NCBI GenBank assembly: GCA_001657385.1
Contig: LYSZ01000010.1
Coordinates: 32,394 to 96,393 of the forward strand
Direction of reading: 5' to 3'
Length of the DNA: 64,000 nt
DNA from: Parvularcula sp. BBD 1991-13
GTDB taxonomy: Bacteria; Pseudomonadota; Alphaproteobacteria; Caulobacterales; Parvularculaceae
Part shown: in pieces, positions 9,901 to 13,469 of the stretch
How positions within the stretch are numbered: the first letter of the stretch is position 1
Layout: each line of letters begins with the position of its first letter
The notes under the pieces: model-generated
Databases searched by the model: none
What the model was told of the DNA's origin: nothing
Seen by the model: only the letters and a program-made list of their open reading frames with translations
Translations under genes and position numbers: made by a program

Positions 9901-10713
9901 ATGAGCATTGCCATGTTGTCTGCGATTTCCCTGATTTGCGCGGATGCGGCGTTGCCGGCCGCGGCGCTGTCGTCGGCCGCGGCGACGCAGGCGGCGGCGG
10001 CGCAGCCTACAAAGGAGGCGGCGCAGGAAACGCCTTTGGCCGCCGCCGAACGCGACATGCCTGCCGCTCCGGGCGCAGCGTCCGCGGCCCCCGGGCGGGA
10101 CGCCGGAACCGCAGATGCGGCGGAGATCGTTGCGGTCCCGAAATCCATCGAGGACGCGCTCGTCTTCGCCGATGAAAGCGACGCCGCGGTGGTGGCGCGG
10201 CTCGAAGCCTATCTGGCGGCGCTGAAAACCCTGAGCGGCGATTTCACCCAGGTCTCGCCGTCCGGCGGGGTGACGACGGGAAAGGTCTATCTGCGCCGCC
10301 CGGGCCTGTTGCGGTTCGAATACGACCCGCCGACCCCGCTGCTTGTCGTCGCCAATGGCGGCCTTGTTTACGTGCGCGACGAGGCGCTGGAGACGACGGA
10401 TTCCTATCCGGTCCGGACGACCCCGCTGAAGTTCCTGTTGCAGCGGAAGGTCGACCTGGAGGACGCGCGGGTCGTCGGCGTCGACCGAGGCGTCGACAAT
10501 GTCGCGGTGACGTTCGCTTCTGCGGACAGCGAGACCGAAGGCGAACTGACGGTCATCGTCTCCGCCCCGGAAATGGCGCTGCGGCGCTGGATCGTGCGCG
10601 ACATCAAAAACGGCGTGACCGTGGTGGCTCTCGACAACGTGAAAACCGGGGAAAGGCTTTCCAATCGGCTGTTCGAAACGCCGGATGCGGGCGGGATTTT
10701 CCTCGATAACTAG
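9901..10713 (+). CDS. lolA: Outer membrane lipoprotein carrier LolA-family protein
   Basis: GDFTQVSPSG..TGKVYLRRPGLLRFEYDPPTPLLVVANGG; long Ala-rich N-terminal extension. Confidence 0.85.
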   Translation: MSIAMLSAISLICADAALPAAALSSAAATQAAAAQPTKEAAQETPLAAAERDMPAAPGAASAAPGRDAGTADAAEIVAVPKSIEDALVFADESDAAVVARLEAYLAALKTLSGDFTQVSPSGGVTTGKVYLRRPGLLRFEYDPPTPLLVVANGGLVYVRDEALETTDSYPVRTTPLKFLLQRKVDLEDARVVGVDRGVDNVAVTFASADSETEGELTVIVSAPEMALRRWIVRDIKNGVTVVALDNVKTGERLSNRLFETPDAGGIFLDN

Positions 10714-10809
10714 GATTTCTCTCACCCCTTCCGGGGCCGGTCCGGGCGCGCGCGGCGCGCCTTTCCGCTTTGTAACCGAGTCACAGGCAAGCTTTTTTTT
10801 GCCGCCCTA

Positions 10810-10839
10810 TTGAAAAACCGAGCTGTGATGCGTTAATGT
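10810..10839 (+). promoter_or_regulatory. Putative sigma70 promoter of candidate sRNA
   Basis: TTGAAA (10810) with TAATGT (10834), 18-nt spacer. Confidence 0.5.
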
Positions 10840-10844
10840 AACAG

Positions 10845-10990
10845 TACGCGATAGGCGCATCTGGTTCGGCCGGCGTTGCCCCCCCGCTAGCAGGCTGAAC
10901 CGCGTAATCGCGTCGCCGGAATATCCCCTCCCGGCGTAGGCGCAACAGCGCAGCTTGGCGTCCGGTCGCAAGATCGGACGCCTTTTTTTT
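10845..10990 (+). ncRNA. Candidate small RNA (two stem-loops with C-rich loops plus terminator)
   Basis: Own promoter; stems 10846-52/10907-13, 10863-71/10893-901, 10914-19/10931-36; intrinsic terminator; no credible ORF. Confidence 0.6.
10957..10990 (+). terminator. Rho-independent terminator
   Basis: GGCGTCCGGTC-GCAA-GATCGGACGCC followed by T8. Confidence 0.85.
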
Positions 10991-11084
10991 GCAGCGGTTC
11001 CGGGACGCGGGGTCCCGCTTTCCGACGCGGCGCGACACGACGAAAGACTGACTTGGCCGGCGCAAGGACGTAGCCTGAACGCTT

Positions 11085-11681
11085 ATGGACGAAGACGAAC
11101 TCGAAGCGCTTGAACGCGAACTGCCGGGCCTGTCCGCCCTGGCGCGGTTCGCGCGCACGCTTGACCGAATTCCCTGGTTCGCCAATCTCGGCGAGCCGCT
11201 GACGCCGGGGGCGCGCGCCGCCGCATCGGCCTATCTCGACGGGCTCGGCTTTCCCGAGGCGGACGTGGCCATTCTTGTCGACTGGGAGGACGCCGCCGAC
11301 GCGGCGGAGAGCCGCGACTGGCACAGTCCCGCCTGGGAGGCCGAGGAGCTGTTGCGCGCGGACCTTACCGCCGCGGCGCTGGAGACCATGTCCGAGGATG
11401 CGCTGCGCATCGGCATGACCCTGATCGCCGAGAAAGTGTCCGCCGCCGCCCGGGAGGCCATGGAGCAGGCGGCTTTCATCTGGGACGTGGAAGACGAGGC
11501 GTCGCGCACCCTGGCGGTCGGCGCCGCGGTGCAGGCCGCGCATGGCGCGGCGCTGGTGATTGTCGCCGCGGCGGACCCGGAGATCGACGTCGAGGATCAC
11601 GCCTTCGCCGCCAAGTTCAGGCTGTTCGAGTTCGGACGCTGGCCGGTGGGCGTTGTCGGGTCGTCCTTCAACCTGTTCTGA
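11085..11681 (+). CDS. Hypothetical acidic protein
   Basis: 198-aa ORF with host-like codon usage filling the gap; no family recognised. Confidence 0.7.
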   Translation: MDEDELEALERELPGLSALARFARTLDRIPWFANLGEPLTPGARAAASAYLDGLGFPEADVAILVDWEDAADAAESRDWHSPAWEAEELLRADLTAAALETMSEDALRIGMTLIAEKVSAAAREAMEQAAFIWDVEDEASRTLAVGAAVQAAHGAALVIVAAADPEIDVEDHAFAAKFRLFEFGRWPVGVVGSSFNLF

Positions 11682-12450: not shown

Positions 12451-12570
12451 GGCGCCGCTCTTATGGGGTTTGGCGCCGCCCGGCAATCGCCCGGCGCTGG
12501 AAGGCGGTCGGCCTTGACGGCGCCGGTTCCTCCGCCTAGGCCGGATTTCGCCGGATGGGTGAGGATGTTC

Positions 12571-12597
12571 GGCCCTACCGGCCCTACCGGCCCTACC
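12571..12597 (+). repeat. 3 x 9-bp tandem repeat GGCCCTACC
   Basis: Units at 12571, 12580, 12589 in the tauE-xth divergent spacer. Confidence 0.85.
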
Positions 12598-12665
12598 GCC
12601 CTCTTTTTCCGGCGAACGGTCGAACGACCCTTGATGCGACGATCCGAACAGACAAAGGCCCCTCC

Positions 12666-13469
12666 ATGCTGATCTCCACCTGGAACATCAATTCCGTCCG
12701 CCTGCGCATCGATCAGGTGACGCGGTTTCTCGACGAGCACGCCCCGGATGTTCTGTGCCTTCAGGAAATCAAATGCCTTGAGGACAATTTTCCCTACAAG
12801 CCGCTGCGCAAGGCCGGGTACGACCACATCGCCGTGTCCGGTCAGGCGGGGTATCACGGGGTCGCCATCGTCTCGCGCCTGCCCCTGAAGAAAGTGGAGG
12901 TGCGTCGCTTCTGCGGCAAGGACGATTCCCGGCATGTGGCGGCCAGTCTGCCCGGGGGCGTGCGGGTCCATAATTTCTACGTCCCCGCCGGCGGCGACGA
13001 GCCGGACCCGGAGAAAAACGACAAGTTCGCCCACAAGCTCGATTTTCTCGACGAGATGGCGGACTGGTTTTCCGGACTGGGGCCGCGTTCGAAGTCTGTC
13101 CTGGTCGGCGATCTCAACGTCGCGCCGTCGGAAAACGACGTCTGGTCTCACAAACAGCTCTTGAAGGTTGTCTCCCACACCCCGGTCGAGGTCGAAAAGC
13201 TGTCCGGCGTCATCGACTCCCATGGCTGGGTGGACGTGGCGCGCGCCCTCGCGCCGGAACCGGAAAAACTCTACACATGGTGGTCATACCGCGCGAAGGA
13301 CTGGCGCGCATCCAATCGCGGTCGCCGCCTCGACCATATCTGGGTGTCGCCGTCGCTCCGGAAAGCGGCCCTGGCCGGCGGGCGCGAAGCCTACCGCATC
13401 CATGACGACGCGCGCGGCTGGGAGCGGTCCTCCGACCATGCGCCGGTGTCGCTGAAGCTGGCGCTGTAG
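12666..13469 (+). CDS. xth: Exodeoxyribonuclease III
   Basis: STWNINSVR, PDVLCLQEIK, NFYVPAGG, VGDLNVAP, YTWWSYR, GRRLDHIW, SDHAPV. Confidence 0.95.
   Translation: MLISTWNINSVRLRIDQVTRFLDEHAPDVLCLQEIKCLEDNFPYKPLRKAGYDHIAVSGQAGYHGVAIVSRLPLKKVEVRRFCGKDDSRHVAASLPGGVRVHNFYVPAGGDEPDPEKNDKFAHKLDFLDEMADWFSGLGPRSKSVLVGDLNVAPSENDVWSHKQLLKVVSHTPVEVEKLSGVIDSHGWVDVARALAPEPEKLYTWWSYRAKDWRASNRGRRLDHIWVSPSLRKAALAGGREAYRIHDDARGWERSSDHAPVSLKLAL

Follow-up and report, generated by a model that had tools for sequence, protein, structure and literature searches.

The intergenic region 3' of lolA in Parvularcula sp. BBD 1991-13 carries a predicted small RNA (sRNA) that is very probably the Hyphococcus (Parvularculaceae) orthologue of RusT of Caulobacter crescentus, that is, a stand-alone, trans-acting RNA that pairs with the ribosome-binding sites (RBS) of receptor mRNAs. 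The sRNA occupies positions 10844-10990 of the + strand of the window, a 64,000-nucleotide (nt) stretch of contig LYSZ01000010.1 (assembly GCA_001657385.1) whose numbering is used for all coordinates given without a contig. The genus of the organism behaves like Hyphococcus, of which Marinicaulis is a synonym in the NCBI taxonomy. The RNA is a member of the RusT family with an extended structure; none had previously been described from the taxonomic family or, in the NCBI taxonomy, the order to which the organism belongs. Structure, conservation, covariation, synteny, identity of the seed, promoter layout and target-motif enrichment form the basis of the assignment. Expression in this organism, a requirement for Hfq, control by NtrX and iron, and receptor repression would be expected by analogy with the experiments in Caulobacter.

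RusT (CCNA_R0199) of C. crescentus is an sRNA of 118 nt whose gene lies between lolA and xth (Vogt et al., mBio 2024; PMC11005374). It consists of four stem-loops, the last of which is the terminator, and is bound and stabilised by Hfq via the A/U-rich stem-loop 3 (nt 73-84). RusT is induced by iron starvation (dipyridyl) and by zinc; the genes that it represses include ompW and those of TonB-dependent receptors. The conserved loop of stem-loop 2 (nt 45-57) serves as its seed, and C53 within this loop was validated by compensatory mutations. Chromatin immunoprecipitation sequencing (ChIP-seq) showed NtrX at the rusT promoter, and the authors took this to mean that NtrX represses rusT when inducing conditions are absent; transposon insertions in ntrX lead to constitutive expression of RusT. 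A fragment from -87 to +8 is by itself able to drive a reporter. Homologues have so far been reported in the Caulobacteraceae only (PMC11005374).

An earlier reading made from the letters of the window (the sequence-only reading) had proposed a stand-alone, trans-acting sRNA of ~145 nt and had not recognised it as a named family. The first proposal is supported, with expression presumed, by conserved promoter elements, covarying stems, invariant loops and orthology to the Hfq-dependent RusT. The second is correct insofar as the RNA lies outside Rfam, but synteny, seed and promoter layout place it in the RusT family (PMC11005374).

Predicted structure and identity of the seed

The RNA fold of positions 10843-10992 had a minimum free energy of -75.3 kcal/mol, compared with -57.9 ± 3.9 kcal/mol for dinucleotide shuffles (z = -4.5), and none of 200 shuffles reached the value of the native sequence. 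The predicted fold consists of four hairpins: H1, H2, H3 and the terminator.

10844-10990, + strand: the sRNA, ~147 nt, with predicted start at G10844 and 3' end in the T8 run (fold; matched over its full length by the covariance models R1 and R2)
10846-10913, + strand: H1, a long bulged hairpin with outer stem ACGCGAU/AUCGCGU and inner stem GGUUCGGCC/GGCUGAACC
10879-10885, + strand: C7 run at the apex of H1, inside the invariant block GCGUUGCCCCCCCGCUAGC
10914-10936, + strand: H2, stem CGCCGG/CCGGCG, with the seed loop AAUAUCCCCUC at 10920-10930
10940-10951, + strand: H3, GCGC-AACA-GCGC, from the fold
10957-10982, + strand: Rho-independent terminator with an 11-base-pair (bp) stem and a GCAA loop, followed by T8 at 10983-10990 and called by the terminator scan

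H1 with its outer and inner stems and C7 cap, H2 with its CGCCGG/CCGGCG stem and loop, and the 11-bp GCAA-tetraloop terminator with T8 had all been described in the sequence-only reading, and the fold recovered each of them in the same place; the terminator was also found by the scan. The inventory of hairpins was nevertheless incomplete, the third small hairpin at 10940-10951 having been overlooked.

The H2 block, AUCCCCUCCCGGCG, is identical to the experimentally defined seed hairpin block of RusT. Nucleotides 45-57 of C. vibrioides RusT read AACCUAUCCCCUC and the H2 loop of the window reads AAUAUCCCCUC, both carried on a GCCGG/CCGGC stem. A 14-nt block, ATCCCCTCCCGGCG, is invariant in an alignment of six lineages that extends from the window to C. 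vibrioides RusT, and C10926 of the window is the counterpart of C53.

Two primers of the published study tie the aligned Caulobacter loci to rusT. KFO-0630, listed for the rusT expression plasmid, is GCATGGCGATGGGCGACC, and the reverse complement of KFO-1575 contains CTCCCGGCGGCGGCATG (PMC11005374). KFO-0630 corresponds to nt 1-18 of the RNA, and the two primers together match the C. vibrioides DSM 9893 locus and the weak Caulobacteraceae loci found with R1, a covariance model built from the window's genus alone. The R1 scores of these loci are 21-32 bits (E 1e-5 to 8e-3). A second model, R2, built from 36 order-wide sequences, scores RusT of C. vibrioides, C. segnis and C. endophyticus at 45-51 bits, a value that is not independent because the R2 seed alignment took in some Caulobacteraceae sequences. 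Furthermore, hfq and ntrY are present in the window's own genome. These two genes lie ~7 kb apart on the same strand, hfq at C23:125605-125793(-) and ntrY at C23:132710-133222(-), so that the genes for the likely chaperone of the sRNA and for the sensor of its likely regulator are close together.

Conservation and covariation

The sRNA is single-copy in its own genome and was found once, at full length and with 80-87% identity, in each of the 24 same-genus genomes sampled. In the genus alignment, the loops and apical parts GCGTTGCCCCCCCGCTTGCAGG and TCGCCGGAATATCCCCTCCCGGCGTAGGCGC are invariant, and variation, compensatory in kind, is found in the lower H1 stems and at the top of the terminator. 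RNAalifold applied to this alignment gave the same four hairpins, with 99.5% of cells paired. Compensatory double changes were found at 8 pairs, compared with 3.2 ± 1.2 in column shuffles (none of 500 reached 8) and 1-3 in slid controls. H2 and H3 are uninformative on covariation within the genus because there is no variation there.

At the level of the class, 29 of 40 pairs showed compensatory changes (shuffles, 19.7 ± 2.1; slid controls, 7-12) in an alignment fitted to the covariance model, which favours the structure somewhat. H2 becomes informative in this set: it is 100% paired and four of its six pairs covary, as do nine of the eleven terminator pairs. The GCGC stem of H3 is kept class-wide and its loop is variable. 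The apical block of H1, invariant in the genus, is nearly so in at least 13 other families. The substitution pattern in the RNA is one of stem covariation and is not codon-like, and the open reading frames that overlap it are spurious, reflecting GC-richness only. The sequence-only reading had looked to relatives for covariation and for a conserved structure between lolA and the downstream gene. Compensatory changes exceed those of shuffles both within the genus and class-wide, and the relatives have at this site a structure whose stems covary and whose loops do not change.

The putative promoter

The following elements were located upstream of the RNA.

10782-10791, + strand: upstream box CACAGGCAAG, ~-62 to -53 from the predicted start, a candidate regulator site marked by its recurrence across promoters
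10793-10800, + strand: T8 tract, ~-51 to -44, at a position like that of a UP element (T-run kept in the genus alignment; role presumed)
10810-10815, + strand: -35 box TTGAAA (TTGAAAA is invariant in 24 genus members), aligning with TTGACT of Caulobacter rusT
10829-10839, + strand: -10 region, TGc-GTTAAT (10832-10837) or TAATGT (10834-10839), inside the genus-invariant block TGATGCGTTAATGTAACA

The Caulobacter rusT promoter, whose +1 was fixed by primer KFO-0630, reads TCACAACAGGCAAG ... TTGACT-N16-(TGg)CATATT-N6-G(+1), and that of the window reads GTCACAGGCAAG ... TTGAAA-N16-(TGc)GTTAAT-N6-G10844. A 16-nt spacer to the -35 box and a distance of 6 nt to the start are common to both. Since the two promoters align, transcription is predicted to start at about G10844, giving an RNA of ~147 nt; the start at about 10845 put forward in the sequence-only reading is 1 nt off. 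The promoter proposed there, TTGAAA/TAATGT, has its hexamers at 10810-10815 and 10834-10839, but the alignment with rusT prefers a -10 element at 10832-10837, 2 nt away, and a consensus sigma-70 scan of the region called no site, the proposed promoter included. An EcfG or RpoH promoter in the TGATGCGTTAATGTAACA block was considered and rejected, as no consensus fitted on inspection.

Promoters from five families were compared, and most of them, that of C. vibrioides rusT (TCACAACAGGCAAG) among them, have a CACAnnCAAG box ~53-62 nt before the start. By analogy with the ChIP peak on the Caulobacter rusT promoter, NtrX may bind at this box.

The possibility was considered that the RNA derives from the 3' untranslated region of lolA, by processing or read-through, and has no promoter of its own. 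In most genomes examined it lies directly 3' of lolA on the same strand, the hairpin that follows lolA is only a weak terminator candidate, and the promoter escapes the consensus scan. AbnZ, a 3'-derived C-loop sRNA of Caulobacter, offers a precedent (PMC11724286). Such an origin is nonetheless improbable. Conservation as high as that of the RNA extends over ~65 nt upstream of it, with GTCACA..CAAG, the T-run, TTGAAAA and TGATGCGTTAATGTAACA invariant in the genus alignment, so that the upstream box and the -35 and -10 blocks are all kept. Moreover, the Caulobacter -87 to +8 fragment drives a reporter and carries the NtrX ChIP peak, and the promoter layout of the window aligns with it base for base.

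Distribution and synteny

R1 was used to search 201 genomes of the same GTDB order and gave full-length matches in 89. Matches were obtained in all genera of the window's family but one and in most genomes of two other families, and a family whose genomes measure 4-5.5 Mb gave weak matches (E 1e-5 to 8e-3). Among ~29 R1 loci sampled, the weakest included, nearly all adjoin lolA and/or xth, and most lie directly 3' of lolA on the same strand and are followed by a homologue of orf198, the gene next downstream in the window, and/or by xth. Because of this synteny, most of the weak matches are independently supported. The lineages among the matches listed in a pattern scan were Caulobacter, Phenylobacterium, Maricaulis, Hyphococcus/Marinicaulis and Parvularculaceae. 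In a metagenome-assembled genome of Hyphococcus the RNA scored 165 bits, like same-genus members, and the LolA and orf198 products had 68-81% identity, within the same-genus range.

One genus of the window's family had no R1 match in any of its 8 complete-quality genomes, and its sister genera were all positive. Either the RNA was lost in this lineage or it has diverged beyond detection.

R2 was used to search 401 genomes from 308 genera of the class and matched in 55 genomes of 41 genera. About 30 of these matches are strong and full length (E 1e-9 to 1e-26) and come from at least 13 further families. The strong loci are mostly arranged lolA-RNA-orf198-xth, and in them the seed hairpin H2 is retained together with the H1 apex GCGUUGCCCCCCC(C)GCUUGC. 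About 10 of the 20 weak matches adjoin lolA and/or xth; the RNA is shorter there and has a UCCCCUG loop, and its terminator loop is rich in C. Across the order and the class, a same-strand lolA was directly upstream in the great majority of the covariance-model loci examined.

Further C-rich loops were observed in relatives. In many of them (Maricaulis and its kin, and other families) the terminator carries one, for example CUCCCCCCCUCGAG or CCCCCCC, and in some there is one near the 5' end (CAUCCCCCUGG). Because of these additions, the number of C-rich loops per member ranges from one or two up to four.

A second alternative is that a separate family of C-loop sRNAs, with another regulator and another regulon, has come to occupy the intergenic site of RusT by replacement or convergence, in the manner of GsrN, AbnZ or cuckoo/CcsR. 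The 5' half of the RNA does differ from that of Caulobacter RusT, with a C-tract reminiscent of GsrN and AbnZ, only ~14-20 nt and the terminator align convincingly, and C-rich loops arise easily in GC-rich genomes. This explanation is very improbable, however, since graded intermediates from Parvularculaceae through Maricaulis and Phenylobacterium to Caulobacter are matched by one model at one syntenic site, and the hairpin, the seed and the promoter layout are common to RusT and the window RNA. In addition, the sequence, sigma-T promoter and locus of GsrN do not match, and no Rfam sRNA family scores.

The Caulobacteraceae sequences have no C-tract hairpin, and for this reason the RusT that has been studied looks like a derived, shortened form. 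RusT could therefore be the shortened descendant of an ancient, class-wide, lolA-linked sRNA of ~150 nt with two C-rich modules, the second with a conserved partner of its own; we consider the chances of this to be even. The modules would be the AUCCCCUCCC seed hairpin and the 19-nt block GCGUUGCCCCCCC(C)GCUUGC, and the arguments seem equally balanced for and against the window having preserved this ancestral form. It might just as well be true as not that the partner of the second module is a second regulon or a protein, and that the first module co-evolved with a receptor-specific GGGAGGG RBS in Hyphococcus. If this reading is true, the second module has escaped study through its loss from the model organism.

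The locus

The genes and the terminator candidate around the RNA are as follows.

9901-10713, + strand: lolA, outer-membrane lipoprotein carrier (Pfam LolA PF03548, E 3.5e-24)
10744-10772, + strand: candidate for a weak terminator of lolA, made up of an 8-bp GC hairpin and then UUUCCGCUUU, from the fold of 10711-10812
11085-11681, + strand: orf198, conserved hypothetical, the usual downstream neighbour, with homologues 3' of the RNA in many families of the class
12555-13469, + strand: xth, exodeoxyribonuclease III, the downstream synteny anchor (Pfam Exo_endo_phos, E 2.3e-29)

In the window, lolA, the RNA, orf198 and xth thus follow one another on the + strand, with tauE on the opposite strand between orf198 and xth. 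The hairpin 3' of lolA at 10744-10772 was not called by the terminator scan, and the fold of 10711-10812 was no better than shuffles (z = -0.6). The Caulobacteraceae are without orf198, and xth directly follows the RNA there.

The product of orf198 is an acidic protein of 198 amino acids with 40-80% identity among homologues, and in many families of the Alphaproteobacteria the gene separates a RusT-like RNA from xth. Its 198 codons matched no Pfam or NCBIfam family. It is an uncharacterised gene, class-wide and tightly linked to the sRNA.

The least probable alternative is that the RNA is a cis-acting leader or attenuator of orf198 (and xth) that works through its terminator: although it is on the same strand, ends ~95 nt before the orf198 start and keeps the order RNA-orf198-xth in many families, its fold has a very stable terminator and no competing anti-terminator pairing, the downstream gene varies (orf198, xth, others) while the RNA stays, the invariance lies in exposed loops as expected of seeds, and RusT itself acts in trans on validated targets, as a discrete RNA of 118 nt bound by Hfq (PMC11005374).

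Predicted targets

The sequence-only reading had noted that the H2 loop is complementary to G-rich RBS. This was borne out, the loop being the proven seed of RusT and its complement being strongly enriched at the RBS of receptor genes. A total of 3238 genes were called in the window's own genome with a crude caller based on third-position GC content, and 56 genes for TonB-dependent receptors with a Plug domain were located, of which 50 could be mapped. Duplex energies were calculated between the H2 seed and the translation-initiation regions (-60 to +30).

Five receptor genes were among the top 30 seed duplexes, where 0.46 were expected, and 12 composition-matched shuffled seeds placed 0-1 receptor genes there. 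Receptor genes had lower seed duplex energies than other genes (Mann-Whitney p = 1.2e-4 for the seed with its flanks and p = 2.3e-9 for the loop alone). No receptor enrichment was obtained with the anti-Shine-Dalgarno tail of 16S rRNA (p = 0.097) or with a C-to-G seed resembling RusT-M1 (p = 0.43). Strong seed sites cluster at -10 to 0.

The enrichment can be traced to one motif. GGGAGGG, the exact complement of the seed CCCUCCC, occurs 3-11 nt before the start of 10 of the 50 receptor genes and of 23 of 3188 others (0.7%; odds ratio 34, p = 2e-11). AGGAGG, AAGGAG and AGGAGA showed no enrichment at receptor genes. The outer G on either side of GGAGG does not pair with the 16S tail and does pair with CCCUCCC. 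The ten receptor sites are not recent duplicates, because their flanking sequences differ. Five examples of receptor genes with a GGGAGGG RBS are:

C21:448573-450918(-)
C7:301771-304035(+)
C8:13187-15463(+)
C4:219914-222637(-)
C32:209863-212277(-)

In the complete genome of a second species of the genus, GGGAGGG was found 130-211 nt upstream of the Plug domain in 7 of 23 receptor genes, and these account for 7 of ~53 GGGAGGG sites genome-wide. The best predicted target, the receptor at C21:448573-450918, had no orthologue at E <= 1e-100 in the 24 genus members.

A GGGAGGG RBS was also seen, with annotation by eye, at two flagellar rod genes, a SNF-type transporter, mgtE and nuoN. The rod genes, C3:134705-135490(-), FlgG/FlgF-like, and C3:123846-124238(-), FlgC-like, carry the motif 7 nt before the start and are possible targets.

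For the C7 loop, receptor genes were not enriched (p = 0.18), sites had no preferred position, and none of the complementary sites in the genome stood out.

Points against the assignment

Several observations weigh against the assignment of the RNA as a receptor-repressing RusT orthologue. Outside H2 and the terminator, similarity to Caulobacter RusT is weak, as the R1 scores of 21-32 bits indicate, and H1, much larger than stem-loop 1 of RusT, could not be aligned with it. In place of the A/U-rich Hfq site in stem-loop 3 of RusT, the window RNA has GCGC-AACA-GCGC, and dependence on Hfq may differ from that of RusT because this sequence is not conserved. The proposed NtrX motif GCA-N9-TGC (PMC7240162) is unmatched: the window has GCA-N10-TGC, the 3' half of which is not conserved in the genus. 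The Caulobacter rusT promoter does not have the GCA-N9-TGC spacing either. Since the CACAnnCAAG box is unlike this motif, the box may be the real operator or the site of another regulator.

The target predictions depend on the crude gene calls. Among the receptors listed for about a third of a Maricaulis genome, GGGAGGG was found at none of 8, and among the C. vibrioides matches listed it occurred at receptors once only. Because it is not general outside the genus, the GGGAGGG signature may be a lineage-specific reinforcement. Alternatively, GGGAGGG at receptors may be a strong, receptor-specific RBS that the sRNA merely resembles.

Proposed mechanism and significance

As a RusT orthologue, the RNA would be transcribed from its own promoter just 3' of lolA and end at the intrinsic terminator. 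Its working part would be the 11-nt H2 loop AAUAUCCCCUC, continuing into the CCC of the stem, and this would pair with the GGGAGGG RBS of mRNAs, chiefly those of TonB-dependent outer-membrane receptors. Pairing would block translation initiation and probably lead to decay of the mRNA. H1, with its invariant C7 apex, is probably a second module, for target recognition or for protein binding.

Regulator, chaperone and regulon have been defined for very few sRNAs of the Alphaproteobacteria. RusT is one of these, and it has been treated as a feature of the Caulobacteraceae. The family extends to Parvularculaceae, Maricaulaceae and at least 13 further families at a lolA-linked site, and is thus wider than published. 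A covariance model is ready for this RNA family outside Rfam and would annotate many unannotated intergenic regions. The invariant C7-8 hairpin presents itself as a testable second module. If the target predictions are true, a fifth to a third of the TonB-dependent receptors of marine Hyphococcus form one post-transcriptional regulon through the GGGAGGG RBS, which bears on the retuning of nutrient uptake in oligotrophic marine bacteria.

Comparison with known systems

In a scan of the whole window with Rfam 15, a comparison suggested in the sequence-only reading, no family reached the gathering threshold, including ar14 and ar15/AbcR. At E <= 10 and with permissive filters, positions 10650-11150 gave only terminator-level or far sub-threshold partial matches, among them BjrC68 (24 bits, gathering threshold 39) and ctRNA_p42d (21 bits, gathering threshold 50), and 45 related loci matched no Rfam family either.

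Multi-hairpin sRNAs with C/U-rich anti-Shine-Dalgarno loops, such as alpha-r14/NfeR1, cuckoo, CcsR and AbcR (alpha-r15), are found elsewhere in the Alphaproteobacteria and resemble the window RNA in this respect. Their loop motif is CCUCCUCCC. The window RNA differs from cuckoo, CcsR, AbcR and alpha-r14 in its loop motifs, CCCCUCCC and C7, and in being single-copy and lolA-linked. The comparison with AbcR and cuckoo drawn in the sequence-only reading therefore stands as one of analogues with C/U-rich anti-Shine-Dalgarno loops but not as one of relatives, there being no Rfam match.

GsrN (CCNA_R0081) of Caulobacter is transcribed from a sigma-T/EcfG promoter, GGAAC-N16-CGTT, and recognises G-tracts in mRNAs with six or seven exposed cytosines of a 5' hairpin (Tien et al., eLife 2018; PMC5869019). 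Its mode of action resembles that predicted for the window RNA, but it has no sequence homology to the latter, lies at another locus and is without the AUCCCCUCCC hairpin. The possibility of a GsrN homologue was rejected, because neither the GsrN sequence nor its sigma-T promoter matches (PMC5869019) and the models match another Caulobacter locus. The window has CGTT at 10831-10834 and no GGAAC 15-17 nt upstream, TTGAA/TGAAA being there instead. AbnZ (CCNA_R0123), also of Caulobacter, represses the envelope operon tamAB with homopolymeric C loops via G-rich sites near the RBS (PMC11724286), and is unrelated to the window RNA in sequence and locus. GsrN, AbnZ, cuckoo/CcsR and AbcR are thus similar in action and are not relatives.

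RusT is the closest known system. Both RNAs lie 3' of lolA and 5' of xth on the same strand, share the H2 seed AUCCCCUCCCGGCG and the promoter layout, and consist of four hairpins that end in a Rho-independent terminator. TonB-dependent receptors are targets of RusT and the predicted main targets of the window RNA, whose genome encodes Hfq and NtrY. The window RNA is longer (147 nt compared with 118 nt), and its 5' hairpin is long, with an invariant C7 apex that has no counterpart in RusT. H3 stands at the position of RusT stem-loop 3 with a different sequence. Between the RNA and xth the window has orf198 and the opposite-strand tauE, which are additional to the RusT locus. The window organism belongs to a family other than the Caulobacteraceae of RusT and, in the NCBI taxonomy, to another order.

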